Source of the DNA: a virus
Lineage: Duplodnaviria; Caudoviricetes
Direction: 5' to 3' (one strand)
Virus record (IMG/VR): IMGVR_UViG_3300010340_000989
Location: 64,001 to 128,000 of that record
Length of the DNA: 64,000 bases
The translations under genes were made by a program, and so were the position numbers. The notes beneath the pieces were generated by a model, which saw only the letters and a program-made list of their open reading frames with translations, did no database searches and was not told the DNA's origin. Positions 4,518-63,777 of the stretch are shown here, one piece after another (positions within the stretch are counted from its first letter, which is position 1; every line of letters begins with the position of its first letter).

Positions 4518-4787
4518 CTATTTAACTATCTTTTCTATTTTAAGATTTCTCAACTCTCTCTTATAAAAATCTGAAACATTGATAACACTTGGATCTGGAA
4601 TCTTCTTGGTTAGAATTCTAACAAGAATATCATCTGATAACCCAGTTATATCAAGACTAAACTTAGTTCGTTTAGATTTTTTAATGTGCAGAGTTGTTTC
4701 ATTCAGGTTATAGAACTTAATCTCTCCCGAATTTACCTTATTGTCTAATAAGGATTTAACTTTTGCTTTTATAAATATATTTTTCAT
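4518..4787 (-). CDS. hypothetical protein with C-terminal RxxK tag
   Basis: Ends RNLKIEKIVK; TATATTTG element at 4795-4802. Confidence 0.65.
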   Translation of the reverse strand: MKNIFIKAKVKSLLDNKVNSGEIKFYNLNETTLHIKKSKRTKFSLDITGLSDDILVRILTKKIPDPSVINVSDFYKRELRNLKIEKIVK

Positions 4788-4863
4788 CGAATTACAAATA
4801 TAAGGATTTTTTATTCCAAAAAAAAATATGATATGGAACTAACTTGATTACAATATATAATAT

Positions 4864-5748
4864 ATGAATAATTATTACATATATGTCTATTTAGACTCTA
4901 GAAAATCTGGTAAATTCATTTATCATGATATAGAATTTGATTTTGAACCATTCTATGTTGGAAAAGGAATAAATGATAGAATCAATAAAAGTATGTTTGA
5001 CTCTTTAAATAAATTAAAGTCAAATAAAGTCAATAAAATATTATCCGAGGGGTTTGAGATTATCTCAGTTAAAATATTTGAAAATTTATCAGAAATTGAG
5101 GCTTTTGATTTAGAGATAAGTATTATTAATAAAATAGGTAAATTTATATCAGGAAAAGGACCATTGACTAATATAAGTGACGGTGGATCGGGTGGAGACA
5201 ATATTAGCAATCATCCAAATTATGAGGTAATAATAGAAAAGATGTGTAATTCACAATCTGGAGAAAAAAATGGATTTTTTGGAAAAAAACATAGCATAGA
5301 AACTATAAAAAATCTTAGCAACTTAGGCAAAGAAAGAACTGGATTTAAAAATCCATTCTATGGAAAGAAACACTCAGATGAATCTAAGTCTTTGATTGCT
5401 GAAAAAAATAGGATTAATAATATTGGTGAGAGAAATCCTTTTTTTGGAAAGCAACATAAAGAAGAGACAAAAGATAAAATTAGAGAGCATAGAATTGGTA
5501 AAAAACTAAGCGATGATACTAGATTAAAAATAAGTGAATCTCTAAAAAAGTTAGATAAGTCTGGTCAAAAAAATCCAATGGCTACATTATATCAGATATT
5601 AAGTCCTAATAATGATATTATTGAAATAATTGGAATCATATCAATGAGAGATTTTTGCAAAGGAAAATTCAATTCAAACATCCTATTAAAAACTGGAAAC
5701 CACAATGGATATTCTTTAATAAAAAAAGTCAGGATTAACGAATCCTGA
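4864..5748 (+). mobile_element. free-standing GIY-YIG-like homing endonuclease with NUMOD3 repeats
   Basis: YIYVY...FYVGKG..R, LTNISDGG; three N(P/G)F(F/Y)GK(K/Q)H repeats. Confidence 0.85.
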
Positions 5749-5753
5749 CTTTT
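5724..5753. terminator. bidirectional hairpin between convergent genes
   Basis: aaaagtcaggatt-aacg-aatcctgactttt. Confidence 0.7.
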
Positions 5754-5771
5754 AAGTAGTTTTAAGTAACT

Positions 5772-6662
5772 TTAAATTAAGTTCTTAATTTTCATTGCTC
5801 TCAGGAGTCTTGTCATTCCTAAGCCGAAGCCCCATCTTTCAATGAAATTAAGTGCAAAGAAGTCTTCCAATTCTGCCTCAACTCTTTCTTCACCAAACTT
5901 ATCAAAAAGAATATCAGCATATTCTCCATTACTAATAGTGTGAAAGTTATTTCTCATTCTAACCACATCAGAATCTCTTTCAGCTGCTCCGATTGTTTCT
6001 TGTCCACAGATGATAAAATCACACTTAGCATATATATTCTCACCATGTTTGTTTTGACCAATTGATCTCATATTCCAAAATGGACTTGTTCGTTGTGGGA
6101 AGTGTGTTATAGCAACTACATCACCATATTCTTTCCACATCATTTCTTCGTGCTCGGACTCTAAAATAGAAACACCATATTTCTCACAAAGCTCATCATA
6201 AGTAAAAAACTTAATGTCTTTAATATCTTTAACAAATCCTAAATGAACACATAAGCTGGAAAGTGTGTGTAGTAGATTTTTATAATCTCCGGTATGTTCT
6301 GCCTCAAACATTGGGAATATTTTATTATGACGACCTTCAATTGGATTTGGTTCATCTCTATAAGATGTAGTCAAACAAAAAACTCCTTCAAGTTCTGGTT
6401 CCTTCATTAAATCGTGTTCTAAAAACATTTGATTTGTCTGTATCATCGGCCAATCTGTTCCGGAAAAATTATATTTTGTAATTGTTTTTGGATCCTCACA
6501 AGCTGCTAAAATTGAAACTCTAGGTTGAGGAAAAGTTTCCTTAAAATTTCTAGACAAAAAAAATCCTCTTAACTTTTGTGTCATTCTGTCAAAGTCAAGA
6601 GGTTTAATCATTGGTTGATTGTAGGGTCTGATGTGTGTCTTTTCTTTCTTTTCTGTAATCAT
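5772..6662 (-). CDS. class IIb aminoacyl-tRNA synthetase catalytic-domain-only protein (AsnRS/AspRS-like)
   Basis: Motif 2 YRDE...RH..FPMFE; ETIGAAER; motif 3 GFGLGMTRL; no N-terminal OB fold. Confidence 0.8.
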   Translation of the reverse strand: MITEKKEKTHIRPYNQPMIKPLDFDRMTQKLRGFFLSRNFKETFPQPRVSILAACEDPKTITKYNFSGTDWPMIQTNQMFLEHDLMKEPELEGVFCLTTSYRDEPNPIEGRHNKIFPMFEAEHTGDYKNLLHTLSSLCVHLGFVKDIKDIKFFTYDELCEKYGVSILESEHEEMMWKEYGDVVAITHFPQRTSPFWNMRSIGQNKHGENIYAKCDFIICGQETIGAAERDSDVVRMRNNFHTISNGEYADILFDKFGEERVEAELEDFFALNFIERWGFGLGMTRLLRAMKIKNLI

Positions 6663-6707
6663 AATAGTTGTTTATCTTTTTATATATAAACAAAAATAAA
6701 AGTTTTA

Positions 6708-7547
6708 ATGTTTTTGAAAAAATTTGAAAATTTTGATAACAATTTTTGTGTATATATTTTTTTAAACCCATCTAAACCAGGTGAGTATAAATATGACGAA
6801 TATAAATTTGATTTTGAACCAATATACGTTGGAAAAGGTAGGAGTAATAGGCCAAAAAATCATATTTATAAATTTAAAAATGGTAGAACATATTTTTATA
6901 AAAAATTGATCAATTTGGTTGGCTCTGGATATGATCCTTTATGGATAATTATTAGAAATAATTTAACCGAAAAAGAGGCATTCGATGAAGAAATTAGATT
7001 AATTAAATTAATAGGTAGAAAAAATACAGGAGGTAGTTTATCAAATCTAACAGATGGTGGTGAAGGTCAAACAGGATATAAACATAGAGAAGAGAGTAAA
7101 TTAAAAACATCAAATAGTCTAAAATCCAATACTGAGTGGGTTAATAAAATGAAATCAAAAGAACATAGAGATAAACTAAGCAAATCTTTAATGGGACATG
7201 AGGGATATGGAAAAGGAATCGCGAGAAGTCAAGATGTGAAAGATAAAATAAGACTAAGTGTATCTGGTGATAAGAATCACTTTTTTGGAAAAACACACAC
7301 CGATGAATTAAAAAATAAACTTTCAATAAAAAATACCGGAAAAAATAATCCTAATTCTAAATTATATAGAATAGAACATAATGGTGAGATATTAACATTT
7401 GAAGGTAGATTGGAACTAAAAGAATATTTAAATAAATTTAATATTGATAATAATTTAAAGGGCCCTAATAGGGTTAGCTTTGATAATTTAATCAATCGTG
7501 GATACTCAAAAGATTTTAAACTATTATCTATTGATAAATTAAATTAA
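6708..7547 (+). mobile_element. free-standing GIY-YIG-like/NUMOD3 homing endonuclease, paralog of 4864..5748
   Basis: FDFEPIYVGKG..RP, LSNLTDGGEG, NHFFGKTH. Confidence 0.85.
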
Positions 7548-7560: not shown

Positions 7561-7782
7561 TTAAAAATGACCATTATATTCAATATATTCCTCCTCTGAA
7601 ATCTCACAAGTATTTATGATAACGAAGTTATAATAACTCCTACTCCCATTTTCTTCTACTTCTGAAACTTGTTTAATAAATTTCATTGGACTGCCCTTAA
7701 TAACCTGATTCCATAGTGATGGATGTTCATGTATAGAAGACCTTCTTGACTTTGCTTGATAAGTGATAAAATAATATTTCAT
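7561..7782 (-). CDS. hypothetical protein
   Basis: ORF in operon. Confidence 0.55.
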   Translation of the reverse strand: MKYYFITYQAKSRRSSIHEHPSLWNQVIKGSPMKFIKQVSEVEENGSRSYYNFVIINTCEISEEEYIEYNGHF

Positions 7783-8108
7783 TTTAATAATAAATTAATT
7801 TTCAAATTTCTAATTATTTGTTTATAAAAGTTGTGAGATTTATCAGTTGAAAAAAAGGTCTTTGCATTTCCAGGTACCCAAAGAGGATCTGATGATATTT
7901 TATATTTATCATTAAGATAATGTGTGAATGATACCATATCACCCATTTTATGGGTTTCAAGAACTTCTAACATTTCTTTATAATGTGGTAACTTATCAAA
8001 ACCACCAACCACATTAATTAAATGTGATTCATCTATAACTAGAAAGTTATAAACTGATTGTGAACATTCTAAAATTTCTAAGTCAGTTGCTGAGGTTGAT
8101 ATTGTCAT
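7779..8108 (-). CDS. hypothetical protein with C-terminal RxxK tag
   Basis: Ends RNLKINLLLK. Confidence 0.65.
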   Translation of the reverse strand: MTISTSATDLEILECSQSVYNFLVIDESHLINVVGGFDKLPHYKEMLEVLETHKMGDMVSFTHYLNDKYKISSDPLWVPGNAKTFFSTDKSHNFYKQIIRNLKINLLLK

Positions 8109-9012: not shown

Positions 9013-9287
9013 TTTAATATTGAGTTAATTTGGAAAAACCGTTGATATGAAATATCACAAGCTAAATTTTCACGTATCAAATATAATAATTCTATATTAG
9101 AAACCAATCTTTTTTTATAATAATATTTTCTTTTTTTAGAAAAATCTACAATTATAAATTCATATTCATTATATTTTTTGTTTTTTTTAAGTTTAGAATC
9201 ATGAGATATTTCTTTTATAGCAAAAAACATATTCCTTTCCTGTGAAAGGAATATGTGTTTTATTCCATTAATATCATCATTATTCAA
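9009..9287 (-). CDS. hypothetical protein with a degenerate C-terminal tag
   Basis: Ends RFFQINSILK. Confidence 0.55.
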   Translation of the reverse strand: MNNDDINGIKHIFLSQERNMFFAIKEISHDSKLKKNKKYNEYEFIIVDFSKKRKYYYKKRLVSNIELLYLIRENLACDISYQRFFQINSILK

Positions 9288-11522: not shown

Positions 11523-12143
11523 TTATCCTTTAACTACTTCTACGTTTTTAAGTGAAATAACTGGTTTTACTTCTTCCATAACTTTCTCAACTGAGCCATA
11601 ATTTTTCATTACATCAATTGTACCTTTTGCTACTGAGAAAGCAGTCACAGCTTTGATAATTTTACCTTTATCTTCATCAGAAATATCTTCACAGTTTTCA
11701 ATCAAAGTTGAAAGAACTTCACCATATTTCTCAATCATTTCATTATCGAAAGCGAAAGTTGTTTTTTCTTCAACAATTTCATCACCATACTCTTCACGAA
11801 GAGCTTCTGCTTTTTCAGGAGAAAGTGAAATATATTTATCAGAAGGAACAAACATAACTTGTGCAGTATCCTCACCAACAACAGTTTCTAACATCACAGA
11901 ACCTGGATTTTTACCAGTTTTTTGATACAGTTCTGACCATTTCTCTTTACCAAGATCTTTAATTTCATCAGAAATCATATCAGCTTTAGCTTTATCAGAC
12001 TTCATACGATCTTGAAGAATTTCAAGATTTTGAACTTTTTTGAAAAAAGAATCATTTTCAATTTTGATACGAACTTTAGTATCTTTCTTATCAGTTGTTT
12101 TAGTAACTGCTTTTGATTTTGCCTTTGAAAAAAGATTAGCCAT
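11523..12143 (-). CDS. hypothetical protein, probably early and highly expressed
   Basis: Two upstream TATATTTG elements; own terminator. Confidence 0.75.
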   Translation of the reverse strand: MANLFSKAKSKAVTKTTDKKDTKVRIKIENDSFFKKVQNLEILQDRMKSDKAKADMISDEIKDLGKEKWSELYQKTGKNPGSVMLETVVGEDTAQVMFVPSDKYISLSPEKAEALREEYGDEIVEEKTTFAFDNEMIEKYGEVLSTLIENCEDISDEDKGKIIKAVTAFSVAKGTIDVMKNYGSVEKVMEEVKPVISLKNVEVVKG

Positions 12144-12178
12144 ATTTTTTTGAGTTTCGTTGTTGTTTGTTTGTTTTA

Positions 12179-12271
12179 CAAATATACGAAATTTTTCTAA
12201 ACCACCAAAATTTATTTTATTTTTTGATGAGTTTTATTGATTTCGTTTCTTTCTTTAGTTTTACAAATATA
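12179..12271 (-). promoter_or_regulatory. tandem Bacteroidota-type promoters
   Basis: caaatata 12179-12186 with caaa at 12206-12209 (N19), and caaatata 12264-12271. Confidence 0.7.
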
Positions 12272-12282
12272 AGGAAAAAATC

Positions 12283-12603: not shown

Positions 12604-12616
12604 ATATTTAATTAAA

Positions 12617-13360: not shown

Positions 13361-13389
13361 TAATTTTATATTTTTGATTATATATAAAA

Positions 13390-22013: not shown

Positions 22014-23591
22014 TTAATGTGTATTTTCTATACAGATTTGCTTTACTTTATTATTAGTCCTGCCGATTGGTACTTTTGTACCAACTGATATAATCAAAAC
22101 CCTTCCTTTGACTTTAGAAAAATCAAGATGATCGCAATAACCATCCGTGAGCAAAACCGTATTGAAATCATTATAATGATCAACTACATAATCAACAGAT
22201 GGTTGTAATACGGTACCTCCAAGACCATGAATTTTCATAGTTTCAAGTTTTTTCTTACTCTTGAAATTCTCAACCCATTTTACTTCGGTATCACCTTGAA
22301 TGAAGTTAATTTCAATATCATTACGATAAACATAAGAAAGAACTCTTTCAAATGTACCTTGACCACCCATTGATCCTGATGTATCAAGAATTACGTTTAC
22401 TTTACTCTTAATCTTACGATTACCTTTCAATCCTGGAATTTGACGACGATTTGGTTTAACAATTGTTTTATGTTTGATGTGTCCAAAAATCATATTAGAA
22501 ACAGAACGTTTGATTTCTTTCAAATAATCTTTACGTTGTTTACGAAGTTTGTTAAGAGTTGTCTCAACATTTCCAGCTGAAAGACCACGAGATGCAAGTC
22601 GATCCATTACGTCACGAACCATAGCCTCACGCATTTCTTCGGGTACATCATCTCCAATGTGTTTATCAAGGTATTCGCCAGTACCATTCTCCAAATCTTG
22701 GAAGATTTGATCAGTACTCCAAGTATCCATAGGATCTCCTTTACCAGCTGGATTTTTACCATAAGGCCCATATGATGGTTTACCAGACGCATCTTTACCA
22801 CCTTCATTACCAGTTCCACCACAGTCTGGACAAGACTCACCTTGGCCACCCCCACCATTACCGTTCTGACCTTGTCCCTGACCTTGACCTGGTTGTTGAC
22901 CTTGTCCCTGACCTTGACCTGGTTGTTGACCTTGACCTTGTCCCTGACCTTGAACTGGTTGTTGACCTTGACCTTGTCCCTGACCTTGACCTGGTTGTTG
23001 ACCTTGACCTGGTTGTTGACCTTGACCCGATTTATTATCTTTTTTACCAGTACCATTACAAGTTTGGCATTGTGAGTTCTTACATTTGCCTTCTTTTTGT
23101 TTCTTTTGAAACTTATCTTTCTCTTCTTTCAACCACTCATATAACTCCTCAAAGATAAGTTTGCCTGGATAATCTTTTGGAATGAATAAAGCCATGTTTT
23201 TACCATCTTTATTCTTAGGGATTTCTACGAAAGAATGTGAAATATCTTCCCAAATAACATGATTAATAATCATATCTTGAGCAATATTAGACAATTTATG
23301 TTCGTACTGACCAGTAATAGTTCTACGTGGGTGATTAAACAAAAGGTGAAAATCCTCATGTAGAGTAATGAAGTTTACTTCTTTTTGAGACATATCCTCA
23401 AGGAACTTTGGAGAGTAGAAGAAATTCATACCCTTTGAGGTTACATTTACCGCACAAGTTCCAATAGAGTCTTGCTCATGAAAACTAATGTGTAAGTTGA
23501 ATTCTCCATAATATGGAAGATTAACCTTTGTATCAATCAACATTGTCTGAATTGAATTCAGTAATTTCTCATGTATATTCTTTACTATCAT
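22014..23591 (-). CDS. HExxH metallopeptidase-like plus VWA domain protein (DUF2201-type MoxR partner)
   Basis: LHEDFHLL..H..R, N.AQD..IN; MIDAS DTSGSM, GGT, LTDG. Confidence 0.85.
   Translation of the reverse strand: MIVKNIHEKLLNSIQTMLIDTKVNLPYYGEFNLHISFHEQDSIGTCAVNVTSKGMNFFYSPKFLEDMSQKEVNFITLHEDFHLLFNHPRRTITGQYEHKLSNIAQDMIINHVIWEDISHSFVEIPKNKDGKNMALFIPKDYPGKLIFEELYEWLKEEKDKFQKKQKEGKCKNSQCQTCNGTGKKDNKSGQGQQPGQGQQPGQGQGQGQGQQPVQGQGQGQGQQPGQGQGQGQQPGQGQGQGQNGNGGGGQGESCPDCGGTGNEGGKDASGKPSYGPYGKNPAGKGDPMDTWSTDQIFQDLENGTGEYLDKHIGDDVPEEMREAMVRDVMDRLASRGLSAGNVETTLNKLRKQRKDYLKEIKRSVSNMIFGHIKHKTIVKPNRRQIPGLKGNRKIKSKVNVILDTSGSMGGQGTFERVLSYVYRNDIEINFIQGDTEVKWVENFKSKKKLETMKIHGLGGTVLQPSVDYVVDHYNDFNTVLLTDGYCDHLDFSKVKGRVLIISVGTKVPIGRTNNKVKQICIENTH
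22867..23026 (-). repeat. in-frame Gly/Gln tandem repeat (GQGQQP)n between CxxCxGxG motifs
   Basis: ttgacc / ctggttg units. Confidence 0.9.
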
Positions 23592-25879: not shown

Positions 25880-26251
25880 TTACTTATCAAAAATTTTGTT
25901 TAGTTTTAAATCTCTGACTTCATCTTTAGTATAAAGTTTTGGCAAAGATTCGCCATTATCGGTAACTCGATTATTATTGAGTCTTTCTTTAAAAAAATTC
26001 AAATCAGTATCTTCATTTGGCAAAGAACCATTATGTATTTTTAAAATATTTTTAATTTCATAAATGAATGGAGAAAAATTTTGACATACTGTTAAATCTT
26101 CTTCATCATGATTATCAATACAAGTCTCTAACAAAAAATATAACTCACTTTTTGAAAGTTCTTTCATTTTTTCTCTTTGATCAGAAACATTAAAGTTTTT
26201 ATAAATCTCAACAAACAATTGAGATACTATTAATTCATTTTTTTCGTACAT
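25880..26251 (-). CDS. hypothetical protein with C-terminal RxxK tag
   Basis: Ends RDLKLNKIFDK. Confidence 0.7.
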   Translation of the reverse strand: MYEKNELIVSQLFVEIYKNFNVSDQREKMKELSKSELYFLLETCIDNHDEEDLTVCQNFSPFIYEIKNILKIHNGSLPNEDTDLNFFKERLNNNRVTDNGESLPKLYTKDEVRDLKLNKIFDK

Positions 26252-26740
26252 TTATATTCCTAGTTTTGTTAATTGATATTCTCGATATTCTTGTTTCCCA
26301 ACAGATCCTAGCTCATAAGCTCTTCTGAAAAAAACTTCAAATAAATGTTCATGCCCCATTTCTTTTGCAGCCATTGCCCTATTTATACTCTTAAATTCAT
26401 CTGTAATACGATTGGCTTGTGTTTGAGCTAACATAATTTGCTTATCCTGATCGTTGGATTTAGAAATTATATCTTCAATTCGTTTGAAGTTTTTTTGAAT
26501 TTCACTTTTTGATTGTCCGTTGTATTTCATAGTTTTTGTTAAAAATACTTTTAAAAATAAATCAAAGCTTTTTTGTCCTCTTTCATTCTTATGACCAGAT
26601 TTATTAGTATGTTGTGATTTGATCCAAAACCAATTAAGCATTTCAAATTCATGTTTTATTTCATCTCTATTTTTCAAAAATATTTGATATTTTTTTATCT
26701 CGATATTCTTGTATAGATAATTTTTTTGAAATGTTGTCAA
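26252..26740 (-). CDS. hypothetical protein with C-terminal tag; true start probably downstream (MKYNG)
   Basis: Ends REYQLTKLGI; annotated 5' end overlaps the upstream gene. Confidence 0.6.
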   Translation of the reverse strand: MTTFQKNYLYKNIEIKKYQIFLKNRDEIKHEFEMLNWFWIKSQHTNKSGHKNERGQKSFDLFLKVFLTKTMKYNGQSKSEIQKNFKRIEDIISKSNDQDKQIMLAQTQANRITDEFKSINRAMAAKEMGHEHLFEVFFRRAYELGSVGKQEYREYQLTKLGI

Positions 26741-28109: not shown

Positions 28110-28439
28110 CTAAACCAAAATTTTATCTATCTTGTTTTCTCTATAATTACTGATAATTTTAGTAATTAATTCATCTTTATCTTTATAAGAAACACCAGTC
28201 AATTCAGATATAACAGCAACAAACATAAGAGATACGTCACTCTCACAGTCAATCTTTTTCCACTCACCATTAAGTCTGAAAAATACCTCTCCATCATTAG
28301 TTATTTCTAATAACTTTTCATTACTTGGTGAATTTATAGTAAGAGTATTTGGTGATTGAATATATGATAATGTGTTATTGTTTGTAAAATTTGATATATC
28401 AATTGAATTAGATTGTGTCATATATGTTATATGACACAA
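28110..28439 (-). CDS. hypothetical protein with C-terminal RxxK tag
   Basis: Ends RENKIDKILV. Confidence 0.7.
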   Translation of the reverse strand: MCHITYMTQSNSIDISNFTNNNTLSYIQSPNTLTINSPSNEKLLEITNDGEVFFRLNGEWKKIDCESDVSLMFVAVISELTGVSYKDKDELITKIISNYRENKIDKILV

Positions 28440-30568: not shown

Positions 30569-30928
30569 CTAAGATAACAAGTTTTTTATTTTCACATCAC
30601 GTTGAATATTCTTTATTATATTCAGTTTTTCCATATGATCTTCATATATTTGTGATGATGGATCCATCAAAGTCCTTGATGTCCATCTTTTTAACTTTTC
30701 AGTTAAATAAATTAATTCAATTTCAGTAATTTCTTTAGAATTATATTTCAACCAATCTTTTTGTATATAATCTGGCATTTTCTCAATATCATTGAATTTA
30801 TCTAAAGAATCTGTTAATATCATATATCTATCATCATTCTTAATTATAAGATGCACTATCTTAACTAGTGATTGATCATCATAGTATTCAAGATGAGTCA
30901 CATATTCACCAAATGGTAGGTCTTTCAT
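30569..30928 (-). CDS. hypothetical protein with C-terminal RxxK tag
   Basis: Ends RDVKIKNLLS. Confidence 0.7.
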   Translation of the reverse strand: MKDLPFGEYVTHLEYYDDQSLVKIVHLIIKNDDRYMILTDSLDKFNDIEKMPDYIQKDWLKYNSKEITEIELIYLTEKLKRWTSRTLMDPSSQIYEDHMEKLNIIKNIQRDVKIKNLLS

Positions 30929-34192: not shown

Positions 34193-34629
34193 TGGCACTT
34201 CCGAATTTTGCAAAAATTAAAGAACCGATTTATTCAAACCTTTTTGAATTCATATTAATTACAGAGAATTTTCATATGAAAGAATTAACTTATGAACTAT
34301 CATATGTTAATACTATTGATGAAAATAAAATTCATATTAGTTTTCTAATTGACACAACAAATTTTAAACATTTAAATTTTGATAATTTTCTAAAAGATAT
34401 AAAATATGTCATACACGTCTCACATTCTAAGAATGGTGAGACTATTGCTCAATTTTTGATAGGTGTTAAGTTCATAAAATCTGAAATAAATTTTTCACAT
34501 AACGATTCTAAAATATTAGAAGTAAAGTTAGAATTAGATAATTTATCTTGTGAGGAAATCGACGTTCCAGTTTGTGAGTCTTATATAAAGTCTATACAAA
34601 GAGATTATAAATTGAAAGGTTTAATATAA
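34192..34629 (+). CDS. hypothetical protein (N-terminus reminiscent of tail-tube proteins) with C-terminal RxxK tag
   Basis: MALPNF...EPIYSNLFE; ends RDYKLKGLI. Confidence 0.55.
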   Translation: MALPNFAKIKEPIYSNLFEFILITENFHMKELTYELSYVNTIDENKIHISFLIDTTNFKHLNFDNFLKDIKYVIHVSHSKNGETIAQFLIGVKFIKSEINFSHNDSKILEVKLELDNLSCEEIDVPVCESYIKSIQRDYKLKGLI

Positions 34630-34984: not shown

Positions 34985-35501
34985 CATCATACCAAATAAT
35001 GGTGAATGGAGAGTCTCTAAAAATAGAGGTTTTAAGAAAAATATTGCTTGGATTCCAGTATTTGATATAATTGATGATAATTTAATACATATTTTTCTTG
35101 ATGTTAGAATATCTAAAGACATTCTAAAATTAGTTAAGAACTTACAAAAAACAGATATAGAATTTTATTTTATATCACCTTTATTTTCAGATCCAGGATT
35201 TAAAGGAGATTTCAACGAGGAGAATATTAATAACTATCTTAGAGGATATTCTAAATCTCAATTTTATGATGGATTTGAGAAAATAGAATTCGATTTTATT
35301 GGAAATTTGATTGAATATTGTAAAAAAGAAAATTGTATTGAATTAGTAAAAGATATATACCTAATAATTAATAAAGATGTTCAAATGAAAGTTTATAATT
35401 ACTACACTAATGAAAAACTTTTTAAACATAAACGTGAAGATATAAGAGAAACATTTAATCAATTATATAGAGATATACAATTACAACAAATATTAAGATA
35501 A
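34971..35501 (+). CDS. hypothetical protein with C-terminal tag
   Basis: Ends RDIQLQQILR. Confidence 0.7.
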   Translation: MDLNNIIPNNGEWRVSKNRGFKKNIAWIPVFDIIDDNLIHIFLDVRISKDILKLVKNLQKTDIEFYFISPLFSDPGFKGDFNEENINNYLRGYSKSQFYDGFEKIEFDFIGNLIEYCKKENCIELVKDIYLIINKDVQMKVYNYYTNEKLFKHKREDIRETFNQLYRDIQLQQILR

Positions 35502-35749
35502 TGAATCATAAGCAAAGAGAAATATTAGAAGAACAAGATTATTGGGTCTGGGATTTTGACTATGAAAATGAGAGTAATTTTGATTATCACATGGATTATT
35601 ATATATCATACGATAGATTAGAAAATGGATTGGTCGACTGGTCAGAAGAAATACCACAATCAGTTAAAAGACAACATAAAATCGATCAAATACTAAATGA
35701 AGATTTAGAAGATACTGATAATAATTTAGGAAAATTCTGGCCTAAATAA
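35501..35749 (+). CDS. acidic hypothetical protein with near-C-terminal tag
   Basis: RQHKIDQIL. Confidence 0.65.
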   Translation: MNHKQREILEEQDYWVWDFDYENESNFDYHMDYYISYDRLENGLVDWSEEIPQSVKRQHKIDQILNEDLEDTDNNLGKFWPK

Positions 35750-40051: not shown

Positions 40052-40662
40052 GAATGAGAGAAACGGATAAAAAAATTTTAGATAAAATAACTAAAGCATC
40101 TAATATAATTGCTTTAAAATCTAGAGGATCCGGTGCTAGTTGGATTATCGCTTCTGCAAAATTGACAGCAAAATTTGATGAAGTATTTAATAATAGTAAA
40201 ATCAGAGAAGAACGAGATAAAAAAATAAACGACTTATTAAGTATGAGTGATAAACAATTAAGATATGATATTACATATTTAGAAATGGCTAAAACTTGGT
40301 CAAACTTATCACACTGTGATAGAAAAAAAGTAGGAGCTTTAATAGTTAAAAACGGGATGATTATTTCTGATGGGTATAATGGTACACCATCTGGATATGA
40401 TAATTGTTGCGAAAATGACAATTGGGAAACACATTGGTATACTATACACGCCGAATCAAATGCGATTTTAAAATGTGCTAGATGGGGTCATTCTTGTGAA
40501 GGTGCTACTTTGTATTTAACTCACTCACCTTGTAAGGATTGTTCAAAATCCATATTGCAATCTGGAATAAAAAGGGTTGTATATGCTGAAAATTATAAAG
40601 ACCTTGAGGGTGTAGAATTTTTAATAAATTCTGGAGTTCAAGTAGAAAAAATAACAATTTAA
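40048..40662 (+). CDS. dCMP deaminase (core from ATG 40243) with a 65-aa N-terminal extension
   Basis: S.C.RKKVGALIVK, GYNGTPSG, HAESNAI, SPCKDC. Confidence 0.9.
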   Translation: MRMRETDKKILDKITKASNIIALKSRGSGASWIIASAKLTAKFDEVFNNSKIREERDKKINDLLSMSDKQLRYDITYLEMAKTWSNLSHCDRKKVGALIVKNGMIISDGYNGTPSGYDNCCENDNWETHWYTIHAESNAILKCARWGHSCEGATLYLTHSPCKDCSKSILQSGIKRVVYAENYKDLEGVEFLINSGVQVEKITI

Positions 40663-40663: not shown

Positions 40664-41143
40664 ATGAAATTTGATGTCAGTTTATTTTCACAATTAGAGA
40701 AAAAAGAATTTCAGGCACATTTTAATAGTGAACTTGATATTTCATCAATGAAGCTATTCTATGATAACTGCATCAGAATGGGTGGGGATAGTAATAGTAA
40801 TATTCAGATAGCAACTATACATCCAGATATTTGGTTCGGAGATCATTTTGAGCTTTTAAATAGTAAAATAAAAATGGTTGTTGAATCACCAGTTTTTCAA
40901 TTAGTTAGAATTGAGGGTGGTCAATTAGTTTGTCAAAACTATTCATCAGATCAAATTACTTTTTCAACAGATCAAGATTTAATTAATTTTTTTGAACATA
41001 TGTCTGAATTTGGTTCTTTAGCAGTTTTTAGTCTTGTTAAATACTTAGATGTTAGAACTCTACAATCTTATTGGAACTTAAGATATAAAGATATATCTAC
41101 AAAAGAAGAGATAAGAGATAAAAAGATTAGTTCTATTATTTAA
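40664..41143 (+). CDS. hypothetical protein with C-terminal RxxK tag
   Basis: Ends RDKKISSII. Confidence 0.7.
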   Translation: MKFDVSLFSQLEKKEFQAHFNSELDISSMKLFYDNCIRMGGDSNSNIQIATIHPDIWFGDHFELLNSKIKMVVESPVFQLVRIEGGQLVCQNYSSDQITFSTDQDLINFFEHMSEFGSLAVFSLVKYLDVRTLQSYWNLRYKDISTKEEIRDKKISSII

Positions 41144-50329: not shown

Positions 50330-50871
50330 TGAATTATAAAGATGCTAAATCTCTTAAAGAACTTGATGATAATAATCTTTATGATATACTATGTAAAGGC
50401 ATAAATCATCCAGATGATGTATCACATTTAAAAGATTTATTTAAAGATACAACCTGTTTACACTATCATCTTTTTGATGACCCAGTATTCACTGAAAAAA
50501 AGAATAAAAGTGATGATAATCCAGATGGGAATAATCTTTTAGAATATATTCTTCCAACTTTGAGAAGACTATATTCTAAATTTTTTATAGTTCCGCCAAG
50601 TATCTTTACAAGTTCAAAAGAGAATAGAAGACTTGAACTATATCAACTTCAATTCAATTTAGTTGAGTTCTTAACTATCTTATCTGAAAAGTATAAAAAT
50701 AATCATAATAAATTAGATGATTTTAAAAATTTAGATACTGATGCTGAGATGCTTACGTTAATAGTTGAAGATTATATCGCATCTAAGGTTAGTTATATTG
50801 CATCAACAAATACATTTGATATTCCTACGGAGATAAGAGATATAAAATTGTCAAGACATCTTAATATTTGA
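50329..50871 (+). CDS. hypothetical protein with C-terminal RxxK tag
   Basis: Ends RDIKLSRHLNI. Confidence 0.7.
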   Translation: MNYKDAKSLKELDDNNLYDILCKGINHPDDVSHLKDLFKDTTCLHYHLFDDPVFTEKKNKSDDNPDGNNLLEYILPTLRRLYSKFFIVPPSIFTSSKENRRLELYQLQFNLVEFLTILSEKYKNNHNKLDDFKNLDTDAEMLTLIVEDYIASKVSYIASTNTFDIPTEIRDIKLSRHLNI

Positions 50872-56140: not shown

Positions 56141-56143
56141 CTT

Positions 56144-57022
56144 ATGAAACATATTAAACCATATAAATTATTTGAATCTTCAAATAGATTTGTTGAAGAG
56201 ATTGGTATAACATTAGATCAAGTTCAAGATATTTTCATAGATGTTAAAGATTCTGGATTAGAAGTTGATGATATTTATATAGGAAATGCTTTATCATTAG
56301 GAAATAATGAAATAGTAACAGATCATAATGATTTAGTATTTATTGACTCATATAGAAGTTTTTCAATTAGATTAAAATCTACCAATCGTCATAATTTTCA
56401 TATAGAAAATGATTTATTTGATGAATTAAAATCATCAATTGGACATATTGAGTCTGAATTTAATTTACAATTAGGTAATATTTACCTAAGAACATTTGAT
56501 GGAGTTTGGTTTAATAATGTAGATACGATGGAAAAGTATATTAATGAATTACCATTTGCTAAAAAAGTATCTTTAAAATGGATTAGTTATTTGGATTTAA
56601 CTTTTAAAATTAAAGCGAATTCAAATGAATATTTAACAGAAAAATATAAAAATCAATATTCTTTACTGAAATCAATATTAAATGATGTTAAAGATATACT
56701 TATTGATTTAACGGATGATAATGATTATTTAAGTTATAATATTGATTTTAATGAGTATTATAAAATTAAGGGAACTGAACTTGGCCAGGCGATGTATGCA
56801 GATTCAATTGATATTCATTTACTAAATGAAGAAGATATATTTTATATCTTTAATGAAGATATTCTACCTACTTTAAAAAAGTTAGAATCATTTTTGAAAC
56901 AATATGATTTAAATATTGATATTGAATTGGTAAATAAAGATATAACTTATTCATTAGATGATTTTGTTAATGAGCATGGTGATAAAAAATCTAATGAATT
57001 AATAATAATAATTATATACTAA
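56144..57022 (+). CDS. two-domain DIL.DL.D family protein with N-terminal leader
   Basis: MKHIKPYKLFES; QDIFIDVKD and KDILIDLTDD. Confidence 0.75.
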   Translation: MKHIKPYKLFESSNRFVEEIGITLDQVQDIFIDVKDSGLEVDDIYIGNALSLGNNEIVTDHNDLVFIDSYRSFSIRLKSTNRHNFHIENDLFDELKSSIGHIESEFNLQLGNIYLRTFDGVWFNNVDTMEKYINELPFAKKVSLKWISYLDLTFKIKANSNEYLTEKYKNQYSLLKSILNDVKDILIDLTDDNDYLSYNIDFNEYYKIKGTELGQAMYADSIDIHLLNEEDIFYIFNEDILPTLKKLESFLKQYDLNIDIELVNKDITYSLDDFVNEHGDKKSNELIIIIIY

Positions 57023-57036
57023 AAATAAATATAACT

Positions 57037-57387
57037 ATGAGAATAAAAAAATTTGAAAATTTTAGTCAAGAAGAGGAATATGATGGATTAAATTCATCAC
57101 AAGAAGAAGAGCTTTTTGAAATATTTAATGAGTGGGTAGATAAAAAATATCCGGATTTATCAAAAGAAGATTTGATAGAGAAATTTACACCAGGCACTGA
57201 TGAGTTTGTAGAGTTTTTATCAGAATTAGAAAATGAAACAGATTGGTTTGATTATACTCAAATTGATAAAATATATCAAGAAATATCTATATATATAAAT
57301 GATTTATATGAGGATGATACTGAATGGGATGATACTGAGTATGAAGATGGTGAAAACGATGATGATGGTGAAAACGATGAAGATTAA
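57037..57387 (+). CDS. very acidic protein with N-terminal leader
   Basis: MRIKKFENF; D/E-rich tail. Confidence 0.72.
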   Translation: MRIKKFENFSQEEEYDGLNSSQEEELFEIFNEWVDKKYPDLSKEDLIEKFTPGTDEFVEFLSELENETDWFDYTQIDKIYQEISIYINDLYEDDTEWDDTEYEDGENDDDGENDED

Positions 57388-57395
57388 TAATTATT

Positions 57396-57785
57396 ATGAA
57401 ATATTTAAAAAGATTTGAAAGTGTAATTGATGATAATATCATTTCATCTTTAAAGGATATCTTTAAAGATTTAAGTGATGATATTTTTGATGTTTATATT
57501 GAATATAAAACTTTTTTTGGTGAAAAAAAACCATTTTTAACCATATCTATTTATAAAAATTCTTCTGGTAAGGAAAATGCACCAGCAGAAGATATTTATT
57601 TATATGAAATAAAAGATTATATTAAAAGATCAATCGAATATCTAAGATCTGAGGGACTTGAACTCTCTACTGTGATTCCATATGGTAGTAGAAATTCCTT
57701 TATAGGAAGACGTGAGGAGGATGTAGAAAATTGGAATCCAGATGATATAGTAATGGCAATGAATGTATATTTTAAAGAAATATGA
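57396..57785 (+). CDS. paralog-family protein with N-terminal leader
   Basis: MKYLKRFES; LKDIFKDLSDD; EIKDYIKR.I.YL. Confidence 0.75.
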   Translation: MKYLKRFESVIDDNIISSLKDIFKDLSDDIFDVYIEYKTFFGEKKPFLTISIYKNSSGKENAPAEDIYLYEIKDYIKRSIEYLRSEGLELSTVIPYGSRNSFIGRREEDVENWNPDDIVMAMNVYFKEI

Positions 57786-58171
57786 AATATTTAAAAAGAT
57801 TTGAGAATTTAAAAGAAGATAATTCAGAAATACTATCTGATTTAAAAGATATTTTATCTGATTTAACAGATGATGATTTTGATATAGAAATTATTGATAA
57901 AGAAAAAAGAAAAAACCAGAGTGGTGATTGGGATAATATCCGTATTCGTTTTATTAAGATAAATGGTAGATACTGTACTGAATTTGAATTATCCGAAATA
58001 AAGGATTATGTTAAAAGAATCATTGTTTATATGAGAAATAATGATTTTAAACTTAAGTATATTTATGCTTTTAAACAGCAGAACATGTCCAAAGATTTTA
58101 ATCTAACAATTGATATTGATCAATGGGACTTAAATATGAAAGTTTTCGGTATTAATTTTTACTTCGATTAA
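57782..58171 (+). CDS. paralog-family protein with N-terminal leader
   Basis: MKYLKRFEN; EDNSEILSDLKDILSDL. Confidence 0.75.
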   Translation: MKYLKRFENLKEDNSEILSDLKDILSDLTDDDFDIEIIDKEKRKNQSGDWDNIRIRFIKINGRYCTEFELSEIKDYVKRIIVYMRNNDFKLKYIYAFKQQNMSKDFNLTIDIDQWDLNMKVFGINFYFD

Positions 58172-58185
58172 ATAATAAATAGTTT

Positions 58186-58593
58186 ATGAAATATTTAAAA
58201 AGATTTGAGAAGTTAGAAGATAATTCAGAAATATTATCTGATTTACAGGATATTTTATCTGATTTAAAAGATGAATATTTTGACATTTCTATTTTACCAG
58301 GAACTTGGAAGAACAATTATTGTATTATGATTGGATTTCTAAAAGATACAACAGGTGGAGTAGCTAAGGAATTTAAATTATCTGAAATAAAAGAATATAT
58401 TGATAGATTAATAGAATATCTTCAATCTAATGGATATTATATTGAAGATATTGACGCTTTTGACTTATCCAAAAGTCTTAAATTTCCGGGTGATAAAGGA
58501 TCAAACTTTGATTGTGTGGGTGCTTGGCCATGTATAAATGAGTGGGATTTAGATACTAAGGTTATTGGTATCAATTTTTATTTTAATAATTAA
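58186..58593 (+). CDS. paralog-family protein with N-terminal leader
   Basis: MKYLKRFEK; EDNSEILSDLQDILSDL; shared GINFYF end. Confidence 0.75.
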   Translation: MKYLKRFEKLEDNSEILSDLQDILSDLKDEYFDISILPGTWKNNYCIMIGFLKDTTGGVAKEFKLSEIKEYIDRLIEYLQSNGYYIEDIDAFDLSKSLKFPGDKGSNFDCVGAWPCINEWDLDTKVIGINFYFNN

Positions 58594-58603
58594 TATATAA
58601 ATT

Positions 58604-59104
58604 ATGAAACATTTAAAATCATTTAAACAGATATCAGAAGCAATTCGACCAGGATACATAAGTCAGAAGTCATTAGATAGAAACACAAAACCACCTAAAT
58701 TTATAGGAGATATTAAACAACCTGTTGAAATAAGAATTGATGTTGAAGCTGTTGGTCATGCTCTTTCTAGACAATATAGACATGGTGTGACTGATACTGA
58801 TGGTAAAATTGAAGCTGGAATATCAAAAGATGAGATATTAGATACTATTGAGGCATCAGTTGAGGAAATAACAATTGCTCTTATGCAAGATAAATTTGAT
58901 ATCTATCAAAATGAGGATGATTATCCTACTCGTGGTGTTAGAGAAGGAGAACCAAATAGATTTGTTATTCGTAAAAAAAGTAATAATTTAAATATTGTTT
59001 GTCAATTAGAACCAGGTGATAATGAATTCACATTAACTGTTATTACGGTTATGAAAAAAGAGGATTTTAAACCATATAGAGGTCAATTTGTATTGGAAGT
59101 ATGA
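58604..59104 (+). CDS. hypothetical protein with N-terminal leader; possible RelE/BrnT-like RNase fold
   Basis: MKHLKSFKQISE; HALSRQYR...I...EI...VITV. Confidence 0.55.
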   Translation: MKHLKSFKQISEAIRPGYISQKSLDRNTKPPKFIGDIKQPVEIRIDVEAVGHALSRQYRHGVTDTDGKIEAGISKDEILDTIEASVEEITIALMQDKFDIYQNEDDYPTRGVREGEPNRFVIRKKSNNLNIVCQLEPGDNEFTLTVITVMKKEDFKPYRGQFVLEV

Positions 59105-59892
59105 AGCATTTAAAAAGATATAATTCAGTAAATGAAAACTCTGTAAGATTGGCAGCTGATATTTTTTTTAGTGGAAAGGATGGTGATTGGATGTCTGGAA
59201 TAAATGAACCATTTTTAATAAAAGAATGTAGTATTATATTTCCAGATTCTACAATCATGGTCTTCAACGTTCTAAAAGAAGACTTTGACTCTGAATTTTT
59301 GAATTTAAAAATTTCACCTAAACAGGACTATACTAATATAAATTCTGTATTCTATCTATCGATTTATGGTGATAATATTCAATTTGAAAGTTTAAATGAA
59401 TATAAATTTGTCAGAAAATATCTTACAAAAGCTGACATATTAGAACACACGTTTGATGCATATATCTATTCTGACAACCATAATGGTGCATTCGAAATAA
59501 AATTAAATATTCTTTCACCGATTGATATAGGTTCAATGATAATGAGACCAGGGATAATTGGATTTCATAATAATTTAATGAAATCCAATACTAAAACATT
59601 TGTTGAAAAAAATAAAAATTGGAAATCCGATATTACAAATTTCTTTGATGATTATACAAAAATTCAAGCTCTATATAGTATGATTGAAAATAAAATAGAT
59701 TCTGAATCTATTTTTGAAATTAAACCATGTGATATTAAAATAATAGATAATTTAACAATAGATGGTGCATTATATCTTAAAAATATACTTAGTGGAATAA
59801 AAAATATTGAAATTTTAAAAGAAATTTTAAGAGATTGCAACTCAAATATTGAATCAAATAAATATTTAAAATTAATTGAAGAATTTTTATGA
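59101..59892 (+). CDS. hypothetical protein with N-terminal leader
   Basis: MKHLKRYNSVNE. Confidence 0.72.
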   Translation: MKHLKRYNSVNENSVRLAADIFFSGKDGDWMSGINEPFLIKECSIIFPDSTIMVFNVLKEDFDSEFLNLKISPKQDYTNINSVFYLSIYGDNIQFESLNEYKFVRKYLTKADILEHTFDAYIYSDNHNGAFEIKLNILSPIDIGSMIMRPGIIGFHNNLMKSNTKTFVEKNKNWKSDITNFFDDYTKIQALYSMIENKIDSESIFEIKPCDIKIIDNLTIDGALYLKNILSGIKNIEILKEILRDCNSNIESNKYLKLIEEFL

Positions 59893-60572
59893 AACACTTA
59901 AAAAGATTTAATCTAATTAAAGAGTCACATTCTCAAGAAAATGACGTGGATATTATTATTGATTCTGTGCAAGATTTTTTAGATGATGATAGAAATATAT
60001 TATTTAAATCATCAATTGATGATATGACACATCAAGACTATATTGATAAGAATTCAAACTATTTAGGGTTTAAACCAATTGTAAATACTGGAAGTTTGAT
60101 TAGAGGTCATTTTATTATGGTATTTCGAGATATAAAAGATTATTCAGATTTCTTATTAATTAATAACCAAATGCAATCAGTTTTTGGTAGATTAAAAGAT
60201 GAAGATTGGACAATGTATGATATGAAACTTAGAACTTCTCCTCCACTAAATAATCAAGGTGATGCTAGATTCATATACTTAGCTTTTTATTTTTCAAAAC
60301 CTGATCAGAAATTAGATGAAAAATTTAAATGGCCAGATGAAAAAGATTTGAAAGAAATTTTTGAAAAATATGGATTAATTAATCTATATTTTGATTATTA
60401 TAAACCTTCTCGTTCAGACGGTCCAGTTGAAGTAACAATAGAATTTGATTCTACAAGCTACGATGGTAAAGTTACTGAAAACGCTGAAGAGCTTTTTGAA
60501 TTAGTTTGTAATAGATTTGGATTTAGTAGTTATAATTATAGTTTTGGTGATTATAGAGTGACTTTGGTTTAA
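59889..60572 (+). CDS. hypothetical protein with N-terminal leader
   Basis: MKHLKRFNLIKE. Confidence 0.72.
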   Translation: MKHLKRFNLIKESHSQENDVDIIIDSVQDFLDDDRNILFKSSIDDMTHQDYIDKNSNYLGFKPIVNTGSLIRGHFIMVFRDIKDYSDFLLINNQMQSVFGRLKDEDWTMYDMKLRTSPPLNNQGDARFIYLAFYFSKPDQKLDEKFKWPDEKDLKEIFEKYGLINLYFDYYKPSRSDGPVEVTIEFDSTSYDGKVTENAEELFELVCNRFGFSSYNYSFGDYRVTLV

Positions 60573-62027: not shown

Positions 62028-62055
62028 ATTTTATATATTAAGAACACCATTCTTC

Positions 62056-62877
62056 CTATTCACACTTTATCAAAAGGTGTTTATTTTTATCCAAGTCTTT
62101 TGATTTAACCCAAAATGCAAATTCTGATAAATTTTCATCATTTACTAATTCTCTTTTTGATTTTTCAATAACATAAAATTCATGTGTTTCAGTGCAAGGT
62201 GGTAAATTATTAATTTTTAATAATTCTTGTTCTCCATAATAAATATGTTTATCTATAACTTTCTTATATCTATTTTTATGTGTTAGAACTGAATCCCCGA
62301 TTAAAATATTTTGTAAAGACTTTAATCCTTCGATTGTTTTAACTTCTGATGTCGGAATAAAACATCCCGGGCCGATCCCCACTTTAACTGCATCAGCTCC
62401 CCAAATTTCAAGTTCCATTACAGCGGTACTAGATGAAACATTTCCTGCAATTACAAAAGTGTTTGGTAGATTTTCTTTAATATATCTTATCATTTTCTCC
62501 ATTTTTACGGAATGGCCATGAGCAATATCAATTGTTATAAAATCTGGTTCTAGAAAAGTGGATTTAAATTCATCTACAATTTTATATGAATCTTCATTAA
62601 CACCAAGTGATATTGATGATACTAATCCCAGTGTTTTCATCTGGAAAGTGAAAATGACAGGATTAATTTTAAATCTATGAATTATATAGAAGTAACCATT
62701 TTCTGCTAGTTTTATAGCTACATTTTCATCGATAACACATTCCATATTAGCTGGAATAACCGGAATTTTAAATTTAAAATTTCCAAGTTTTACTGAAGTG
62801 TCGCATTCACTTCTTGAATTAACAACACACTTCCGTGGAACAAGATTTATTTGTTCAAAATCAAATTTCTGATACAT
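62056..62877 (-). CDS. guaC: N-terminal half of GMP reductase fused to split intein N-part (102 aa, 62056..62364)
   Basis: [47 protein letters not shown], then CFIPTSEV...GDSVLTH...CTETHEF; ATG at 62877. Confidence 0.92.
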
Positions 62878-62878
62878 C

Positions 62879-63193
62879 TTAGTAGAAAATATATTTTTTA
62901 TTATCATCAACGATACAATACATGGATATTGGATAAATTTTAGGATTTTCACCAGTATCATCAACTATGAATCTACATGAACCATCGATTAAATCATTAT
63001 TCATGATTTTAATAGTGGCATTATTAAGTCCTTTAACAACAGTATAAAGTATGTCATCCACTTCAGGAGTAATTTCAACATAATTATGTTGTGTTAGTAA
63101 CTTACCAAGATACCCTTCTTCAAAATAAGCCTTTTGAATAACTTTCTTTAGTTCTTTATTATTTGAGAATTCAATTTTAATTTCGCTTTTCAT
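62879..63193 (-). CDS. hypothetical protein
   Basis: ORF track. Confidence 0.6.
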
Positions 63194-63216
63194 AGTTTTT
63201 TAATAGTTAGACACAT

Positions 63217-63573
63217 TTATAATGTAAATAAGTCAGAAAGTTTTAAGTCTCTTAAAATCATCTGAGATTTAATCTCAGTCACTTCTAACGCATCTACCTC
63301 AAGTTTAATAATTTTATGGTCTCTATTATCAGATAATCCTCTTATAGAAGAAATAGAAAATTTTGCGTTATAAAAAACATTATCTATCTTATAGATAACG
63401 TCTTTGAATTTTTTACCTTTCAATCCAATAAAATGTATATTAGATGGACATTTTATTTTAATAGAATAATAATATGTAGAGTAGCTTGACCATTTATTTC
63501 TTACTTCTTTAAAATTTTTAAATTTTTCCAAAACTTCAAATTTTTCAAATCCAGAAAATTGTATCCAGTTCAT
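63217..63573 (-). CDS. hypothetical protein with C-terminal RxxK tag
   Basis: Ends RDLKLSDLFTL. Confidence 0.7.
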   Translation of the reverse strand: MNWIQFSGFEKFEVLEKFKNFKEVRNKWSSYSTYYYSIKIKCPSNIHFIGLKGKKFKDVIYKIDNVFYNAKFSISSIRGLSDNRDHKIIKLEVDALEVTEIKSQMILRDLKLSDLFTL

Positions 63574-63777
63574 AATATTTTACTTAGTTTATATTCACGA
63601 ATATATTGAGTAACAACAGTTTTAAAATCTTTATGCTTTAAAGATATCTCAATTAAAGCTGTTATGCTTCTTTAACGTTTGCTGCATATAATGGCGCAAC
63701 TCATCCAATCTATCGTTTTCAATAGCTCCAAATATTAGTGAATTTAGATGTTCTATATTTCTATGCTTTTTTATCAT
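63570..63777 (-). pseudogene. frameshifted small gene whose second frame ends in the C-terminal tag
   Basis: MIKKHRNIEHLN...MQQTLK in one frame; SITALIEISLKHKDFKTVVTQYIREYKLSKIL* in another, with its stop overlapping the next ATG. Confidence 0.6.

Follow-up and report, generated by a model that had tools for sequence, protein, structure and literature searches.

Why do numerous otherwise dissimilar small proteins of one phage end in the same nine residues? The question arises from a 64,000-nucleotide stretch of DNA, hereafter the window, which comprises bases 64001-128000 of the 165-kb IMG/VR virus contig IMGVR_UViG_3300010340_000989 (27% G+C). An initial annotation made from the sequence had listed about 16 open reading frames (ORFs) with such an ending, here called the tag. 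Analysis of the whole contig and of its relatives identifies the tag as a genuine feature under protein-level selection that is carried by otherwise unrelated proteins. With a probability of roughly 0.5, we regard it as a portable helical address tag that is read by one co-evolving partner.

The contig is about 52% complete according to the CheckV estimate, and simple greedy ORF calling yielded 245 ORFs that cover 95% of it. Its nearest named relatives are the uncultured phages LR745206 and LR756502 (634-642 kb; topoisomerase identity 74-77%), which belong to the Mahaphage group and have a predicted host in the Bacteroidetes (PMC7162821). In a megablast search against cultured phages only uncultured huge phages were matched. 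Two relatives, G002 (385 kb, 95% complete) and G007 (185 kb, estimated 86% complete), were fetched whole, as was LR756500 (688 ORFs). Full-text searches of the searchable literature yielded no description of the C-terminal tag, in agreement with the initial annotation, to which no described function was known.

C-terminal enrichment and protein-level conservation

The strict motif, R-[DENQ]-x-[KQ]-[IL]-x-x-[IL]-[LIFVG] at most 10 residues before the stop, occurs at the C-terminal end of 28 proteins of the contig, in 27 of them with zero to four trailing residues. From per-protein shuffles 0.035 such occurrences are expected, and 0.08 from shuffles of the last 20 residues. Elsewhere in the proteins the motif is found three times (0.5 expected from per-protein shuffles), and its per-position rate at C-termini is 166-fold the rate at internal positions. 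These controls, which had been proposed together with the initial annotation, rule out an effect of the K/I/L-rich background.

All 16 peptides listed initially were located by a six-frame scan, each in frame with its upstream ORF and at the 3' end beside the stop codon. Fourteen of them are clean C-terminal tags with 0-7 trailing residues, the exceptions being ORF 35501 with 17 trailing residues and the peptide at 63570, which lies in a start-less frame. The total was set too low, since the contig holds approximately 32-47 carriers according to the stringency of the motif. In this phage and in its clade as a whole, roughly every eighth gene encodes a carrier.

The arginine is nearly invariant. 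In a search for the skeleton only (aliphatic residues at positions 5, 8, and 9), Arg occupies position 1 in 46% of the C-terminal matches, whereas among the internal matches no polar residue exceeds 8% at this position and Arg is not among the six commonest. It is retained in almost all partial matches to the tag. In a logo built from 114 non-identical instances, six positions are informative; in addition, a Lys signal at -4 is weak, and -2 and -1 are hydrophobic. Position 8 is occupied by I/L and position 9 by L/I/F, where Phe accounts for only 7%. The tail behind the tag comprises 0, 1, or 2 residues in 80% of these instances (range over all tags 0-17) and consists mostly of K, N, D, or S.

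As stated in the initial annotation, the codons differ. Four Arg codons (AGA, CGA, CGC, and CGT) and five Leu codons are used within the tags; inside one orthologue family all four Arg codons from both codon boxes are used. Variation is seen at every conserved position, within the genome as well as among orthologues, and conservation thus acts at the protein level. A nucleic-acid-level element that is translated by chance, such as a promoter, terminator, recombination linker, or coupling signal, would be in line with the location at gene 3' ends and with the Bacteroidetes-type -7 boxes that often occur within the next 30 nt. Such an element is excluded by the freedom of the codons at conserved residues, including AGA versus CGN for Arg; moreover, the motif invariably shares the reading frame of the ORF before it, and its distance to the stop codon varies. 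We give this explanation practically no credence.

Distribution and variants in related phages

In good agreement with the phage-wide signal presumed initially, the tag is conserved over the whole phage clade. Forty-five related IMG/VR loci that surround topoisomerase homologues with 62-92% identity were scanned; 37 of them carry tags, at a density of 1-9 strict tags per 20 kb. Using a generalised motif, 47 of 462 ORFs of G002 and 34 of 258 ORFs of G007 are tagged. A degenerate DNA pattern gave 47 matches versus one control match in LR756502 (642 kb), and 2-6 matches each in LR756504, LR756500, LR756501, and Tenacibaculum phage PTm1. At the protein level, LR756504 carries the tag with K/N at position 2, and LR756501 has R-T-x-L-I-D-x-V-L on a run of neighbouring genes. 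In LR756500 the tag is at background (4 of 688 ORFs; C-terminal to internal ratio 1.7), and in PTm1 it was not found.

Only about 8 of 31 carriers of this contig have any homologue in G002. The set of carriers thus turns over fast, yet 10-13% of the genes are tagged in every genome. Where orthologues exist, the tag outlasts the body of the protein: in nine orthologue families the identity of the tag core is 0.56-0.92 compared to 0.29-0.77 for the body. Of 18 orthologues, all retain the tag down to 28% identity; nine orthologues (25-48% identity) of the 119-amino-acid (aa) carrier at 30569-30928 also retain it. Among 64 database clusters of the 176-aa family, the full-length homologues all have a tag-like ending down to 30% identity, in one of them with Ile instead of Arg; two truncated entries lack the tag. 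The G002 orthologue of ORF 50329-50871 retains the canonical tag.

Three further observations concern terminal peptides in the relatives. A 58-aa ORF of G002 (261624-261800) ends in two tandem tag copies. LR756500.1 encodes about 15 proteins of 160-370 aa ending in Y-E-H-L-x-N-A-D-D-F-G-[FL]-[FI]-D-N (e.g., 11706-17016 and 197835-199531). In LR756501.1 (735 kb), a second ending, D-P-Y-G-E-E-x-W-[DE], is found on at least five otherwise different proteins (657825-699171).

Relatedness and predicted structure of the carriers

The carriers are otherwise dissimilar, as claimed initially. After removal of the tag, an all-against-all BLAST of the carriers gave nothing better than E = 0.005, and no paralogues of carriers were found elsewhere in the contig. 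Searches of the carriers against Pfam, PHROGs, and NCBIfam recognised the deaminase only (see below). Two carrier families, A2 (19 sequences) and A4 (10 sequences), were aligned and compared by hhalign; just the last 20 columns align, with a probability of 2%.

These data bear on the idea that the carriers are one hugely diverged paralogue family, of which only the C-terminal helix, being needed for fold or function, is still recognisable. Carriers are clustered among small genes, some neighbours share sub-variants (e.g., the L-G-I ending around contig positions 6171-7834), and phage accessory genes diverge quickly, all of which would suit common descent. With the tag removed, neither pairwise nor profile similarity is left, and the single family named at the outset as the alternative to a shared signal was not found. 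Carriers measure 49 to about 300 aa; an aminoacyl-tRNA synthetase-like core and the 585-aa G007 orthologue of window ORF 24121-25842 also bear the tag, and one tag copy is fused ahead of a dCMP deaminase. Even if true, deep paralogy would leave the sole retention of this helix unexplained. We consider it quite unlikely.

AlphaFold2 models of the 176-aa and the 119-aa carrier are confident, with a predicted local distance difference test (pLDDT) score of 92 and 87, respectively, and differ in the layout of their secondary structure. In both, a long C-terminal helix, comprising residues 156-175 (pLDDT 82-93) and 93-118 (pLDDT 85-94), respectively, terminates with the tag. A fold search of the PDB with the two models returned generic helical matches only (Z ≤ 5.5 and 7.7). 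On a helical wheel the conserved positions (R0, D1, K3, I/L4, I/L7, and L8) fall within an arc of approximately 160 degrees and the variable positions lie opposite, which supports the amphipathic helix suggested initially.

Such a helix could also act without a separate reader. In a self-association module the terminal helices would pair as a coiled coil or bundle, and the carriers would form homo- or hetero-oligomers or a condensate. The position of the tag at the end of a long helix in both models, its place in a helical hairpin of an often dimerising kind in one of them, the conserved residues on one helical face, and the tandem tags on the G002 ORF are consistent with pairing. However, nine residues with three aliphatic positions make a very short interface, and an invariant Arg in the middle of the apolar face together with the D/E to K/N switch between clades fits a complementary surface better. 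Self-association therefore appears unlikely.

Alternatively, an amphipathic helix of the MinD/FtsA kind may direct early proteins to the inner membrane with no protein acting as reader. The MinD targeting sequence is comparable in size to the tag, and the tag is likewise predicted to be a short amphipathic helix at the very C-terminal end, its aliphatic face being flanked by basic residues. Lipid-binding helices, however, tolerate wide sequence variation, whereas in the tag the Arg is near-invariant and the neighbouring acidic or amide residue is fixed per clade and switched by whole clades, which is atypical for lipid binding. In addition, the Asp beside the apolar face disfavours acidic lipids, and there are three aliphatic residues only. 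We regard membrane targeting as very unlikely.

Carriers as a class of genes

Carriers are short (median about 105 aa versus about 185 aa for other ORFs) and clustered in runs of small genes bearing a Bacteroidetes-type box. Two classes of upstream motifs occur at gene starts, namely TAnnTTTG, which we take to be the Bacteroidetes -7 box, and TAATATATA. Over-represented in the contig are TAATATATA(A), upstream of 41 genes, and TATATTTG, upstream of 19. The TAATATATA and TATATTTG motifs are candidate late and host-type promoters, TAATATATA being read as late-like. The TAATATATA-type motif is situated upstream of 1 of 38 carriers versus 57 of 207 other ORFs in this contig (p = 3e-4), 1 of 46 versus 138 of 416 in G002 (p = 8e-7), and 3 of 30 versus 87 of 228 in G007 (p = 2e-3).

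A second terminal signal, the N-terminal leader M-K-[YH]-L-K-[RK]-F-[EN], resembles the capsid targeting sequence (CTS) of phage T4. Thirty ORFs of the contig carry it (at 16082-20244 and 55742-60572 of the window, among other places), for the most part downstream of the TAATATATA motif. It never occurs together with the C-terminal tag: between 30 leader-bearing and 47 tag-bearing ORFs the overlap is 0 (hypergeometric p = 0.001), just as the initial annotation had observed for its smaller set. Due to their short length, their location in box-bearing runs of small genes, the depletion of TAATATATA, and the absence of the leader, the carriers are presumably early or middle accessory proteins.

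Candidate readers of the tag

The tag, R-[DEN]-x-K-[IL]-x-x-[IL]-[LIF] followed by zero to four polar residues, is predicted to form the last two to three turns of a C-terminal alpha-helix, in which the invariant Arg, the Lys, and three aliphatic residues would lie on one face. It is appended to dozens of unrelated, small, fast-evolving, and presumably non-late accessory proteins in this huge Bacteroidetes phage and its clade. One common partner may recognise this face, and the whole set may then be handled as a group after translation. The existence of the reader, its identity, and the fate of the carriers are what we infer rather than observe. Since sister clades switch variants at position 2 of the same skeleton, the partner seems to co-evolve with the tag, and it is more likely encoded by the phage than by the host.

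With respect to function, collective clipping or timed clearance by the proteolytic kit of the phage is ranked first, doubtful as it is overall, and recruitment to a hub second; self-association, lipid binding, and deep paralogy are less likely. Candidate clippers matching the distribution of the tag would be an M16 (MPP/pitrilysin-type) peptidase and a DUF2201 VWA-zincin protein.

The M16 peptidase has an intact HxxEH motif (HLMEH). It occurs in all seven tag-bearing complete or near-complete records (G001, G002, G003, G007, LR756502, LR756504, and, with two copies, LR756501) and in neither of the two tag-free records (LR756500, PTm1). Of 34 M16-bearing viral contigs, with M16 identity down to 43%, 28 have tags in the flanks of the gene. 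Among close relatives M16 is 83-86% identical and thereby more conserved than topoisomerase, for which identity is 73-77% (contig versus G002, LR756502, and LR745206). Prediction of a complex of two M16 copies with the last 32 residues of the 176-aa carrier (score 0.03, mark 0.32) speaks neither for nor against M16 as the reader.

In the DUF2201 protein, a zincin motif (HEDFH) and the MIDAS of a VWA domain (DTSGS) are both intact; the protein further contains two zinc fingers of the DnaJ type (CxxCxGxG) and a G/Q repeat linker of approximately 80 residues. Every tag-bearing genome tested has a close homologue. The PHROGs label of this family is "HNH endonuclease", which looks like a mis-annotation.

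The chaperone and AAA+ machines are less convincing. Hsp70, DnaJ, GrpE, and a ClpC-like unfoldase occur in most tag-bearing genomes; all are absent from PTm1 and from LR756500, which also lacks the M16 peptidase. The client tag for Hsp70/DnaJ considered initially is weakened by G007, which tags 13% of its genes and has neither Hsp70 nor GrpE on its 185-kb contig, the syntenic Hsp70 slot being closed up. A ClpC-like gene is absent as well from the G007 contig (at an estimated 86% completeness not an absolute absence), and ClpP is absent from G002 and LR756501; a Clp machine is therefore weakened as a reader. Likewise, a client tag for a MoxR-VWA system, also among the initial suggestions, is weakened because G002, which is 95% complete and has 47 tags, lacks a MoxR-type ATPase. 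The MIDAS is intact and DUF2201 is found in all tag-bearing genomes tested; the acidic residue of the tag is not conserved between clades.

The ClpC-like protein of the contig (149615-151729, minus strand) is a double-ring AAA+ unfoldase with a VGF ClpP-docking loop, without a Clp N domain, and 80% identical to its G002 orthologue. It starts with a conserved short acidic N-terminal peptide, which is found in tag-bearing close relatives; LR756504 has none, and LR756501 has a normal N domain. As a general receptor of the tag this peptide was dropped, because G007 has no ClpC-like gene. Directly upstream of the ClpC-like gene, two conserved genes of unknown function (121 and 204 aa) are located in five relatives. 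Conserved unknown proteins of 251, 573, and 165 aa were rejected as readers: all are absent from LR756501, and those of 573 and 165 aa also from LR756504.

Several points weigh against an address tag with a dedicated reader. Among the candidates examined (clamp, Hsp70/DnaJ/GrpE, Clp, MoxR, DUF2201, and M16) no reader was identified. A weak DUF2201 homologue is present in the tag-free LR756500, and no M16 gene is found on this contig, an estimated 52% of the genome being covered. M16 is one of 54 families shared by G002 and G007 and absent from LR756500. A 186-aa neighbour of M16, an HD phosphohydrolase, fits the distribution of the tag as well as M16 does, so that the pattern marks a lineage rather than a functional link. 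A peptide located just 9-13 residues from the folded body would need to unwind to reach the M16 active site. In both AlphaFold2 models the tag helix belongs to a helical bundle or hairpin and may therefore be partly buried in the free protein instead of being freely exposed. Furthermore, the presumed timing of the carriers is deduced from promoter-like motifs.

Comparison with known terminal signals

The CTS of phage T4 (IPI-III, Alt) is likewise a short terminal peptide shared by unrelated phage proteins for addressing as a group. In contrast to the tag, it is N-terminal, belongs to late proteins that are packaged, and is cleaved behind a Glu by the prohead protease, whereas the tag is C-terminal, differs in sequence, is found on non-late genes, and never accompanies the leader.

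T4-like phages carry C-terminal clamp tails on several proteins. With the tails of gp43, gp33, and gp55 and with PIP boxes the tag would share the principle that unrelated proteins dock on one hub. The 1-4-7-8 spacing is similar too: [DE]-x-x-[IL]-x-x-[IL]-[LIF] corresponds to Q-x-x-[ILM]-x-x-[FY]-[FY]. The terminal position fits, and archaeal PIP boxes typically lie at the C-terminus, followed by a short basic tail. Unlike clamp tails, however, the tag belongs to dozens of ORFans and not to replication or transcription factors, contains no aromatic residues, and has an invariant Arg without counterpart in PIP boxes. In two clade members (G003 and G007, 133896-135098) DNA polymerase B is split into two genes, and in both the C-terminal half ends in V-[IV]-M-D-I-F-G-G-[LE], a T4-like tail, instead of the tag. 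A PF02916 search detected no T4-type clamp in the contig or in four related records, this model being a weak one. A tag that binds a sliding clamp is highly improbable. An acidic-aromatic tail forms the end of the contig's gp32 homologue (130442-131401).

Mitochondrial presequences, which are read by Tom20, form amphipathic helices in which an Arg upstream of a hydrophobic phi-x-x-phi-phi element is critical, and MPP is an M16B peptidase that cuts amphipathic, Arg-containing presequences. An amphipathic helix with Arg and the co-occurrence of an M16 peptidase with the tag make a parallel between MPP and the phage M16 enzyme suggestive. Presequences differ in being N-terminal, 15-60 residues long, degenerate, and cleaved, whereas the tag is C-terminal, nine residues long, and sharply defined, and its co-occurrence with M16 is not specific.

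Degrons and tethers of AAA+ proteases (ssrA, the MuA C-terminus, the XB tail of SspB) are also short C-terminal peptides that deliver unrelated proteins to one machine, and the phage encodes a ClpC-like unfoldase with a ClpP-docking loop. Unlike degrons of the ssrA/ClpX type, the tag has no fixed distance to the free carboxylate, and its trailing residues are polar, not apolar. A sorting signal for an exosortase or rhombosortase was rejected, as no hydrophobic segment follows the motif, NCBIfam gave no match, and the tag is not a membrane span.

Tag sites and neighbouring genes in the window

The window encodes T4-type topoisomerase II subunits, RNA ligase 1, a 5'-3' exonuclease, a NusG-like protein, Hsp70, GrpE, DnaJ, a MoxR-like ATPase, and the DUF2201 VWA/zincin protein. 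The tag sites and the DUF2201 gene are listed in Table 1. The 123-aa carrier at 25880-26251 is the first of three consecutive carriers upstream of a 573-aa ORF and the DUF2201 gene. Among the carriers, downstream of the topoisomerase gene gp52, a rhomboid intramembrane protease adjoins an NIF/FCP1-like phosphatase (29384-30532, minus strand).

According to the initial annotation no recognisable core enzyme ends in the tag. This needs a correction, since a variant tag ends the product of ORF 5772-6662 (minus strand), which is just 296 aa long and resembles the catalytic core of a class-II aminoacyl-tRNA synthetase (Asp/Asn/Lys-type). In case of the dCMP deaminase the copy is internal, and the deaminase orthologue in G002 lacks the 68-aa N-terminal add-on. 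In relatives, an identical peptide belongs to an unrelated 169-aa protein and not to a small ORF preceding the deaminase gene.

The tag at 63573..63599 lies in a start-less frame (63570-63783, minus strand) behind an out-of-frame 42-aa ORF, which points to a frameshifted or broken carrier gene. A frameshift, a sequencing error, or decay of the carrier gene could be the cause.

Table 1. Tag copies and the candidate reader gene in the window, with strand and encoding ORF.
Feature	Position	Strand	ORF or context
Internal copy near N-terminus (residues 27-35)	4211..4237	-	233-aa ORF 3614-4315; missed by the initial annotation
Tag, 1 trailing residue	4524..4550	-	C-terminus of 89-aa ORF 4518-4787
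Variant tag, Ala at position 2	5775..5801	-	Very end of 296-aa class-II aminoacyl-tRNA synthetase-like core, 5772-6662; missed by the initial annotation
Tag	7785..7811	-	C-terminus of 109-aa ORF 7779-8108
Weak tag (R, Q, I, I, L retained)	9015..9041	-	C-terminus of ORF 9009-9230/9287
Candidate reader/processing enzyme, DUF2201 protein	22014..23591	-	Zincin and VWA motifs; homologues in tag-bearing genomes
Tag	25889..25915	-	123-aa ORF 25880-26251; orthologues in G002 and G007
Tag, L-G-I ending variant	26258..26284	-	129-aa ORF 26252-26641
Tag	26676..26702	-	131-aa ORF 26667-27062
Tag	28116..28142	-	103-aa ORF 28110-28421
Tag, Leu for Lys at position 4, 7 trailing residues	29032..29058	-	140-aa ORF 29008-29430
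Tag	30575..30601	-	119-aa ORF 30569-30928, just downstream of topoisomerase gp52; end of predicted helix 93-118
Tag	34600..34626	+	Very end of 145-aa ORF 34192-34629, downstream of topoisomerase gp39
Tag	35469..35495	+	176-aa ORF 34971-35501; end of predicted helix 156-175
Tag, then 17-residue acidic tail	35669..35695	+	82-aa ORF 35501-35749
Internal copy	40213..40239	+	End of 68-aa N-terminal add-on fused to dCMP deaminase (40048-40662); missed by the initial annotation
Tag	41114..41140	+	Very end of 159-aa ORF 40664-41143
Tag, His at position 8	50836..50862	+	180-aa ORF 50329-50871, between GrpE and DnaJ
Tag	63226..63252	-	118-aa ORF 63217-63573
Tag, start-less frame	63573..63599	-	Behind 42-aa ORF (63649-63777) in another frame

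Implications

It is tempting to speculate, and we do so tentatively, that phages of the Mahaphage group run their own proteome-addressing system. In such a system a clade-specific helix tag would mark early accessory proteins with fast turnover, and a dedicated, co-evolving phage reader, e.g., the M16 peptidase or the VWA-zincin protein, would capture, clip, or clear the set. If true, viruses would encode an equivalent of organellar presequence or degron systems; should the phage encode the reader, this would represent virus-owned addressing or timed removal of proteins at the scale of a proteome.

The largest known phages (634-735 kb) are uncultured and their genes are mostly ORFans, to which one peptide shared by 10-13% of the genes offers an entry point. 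The tag defines a functional class of non-late, fast-evolving accessory proteins and predicts a common partner that would be retrievable with one peptide. The switching of variants between sister clades constitutes a natural co-evolution experiment by which this partner may be found.

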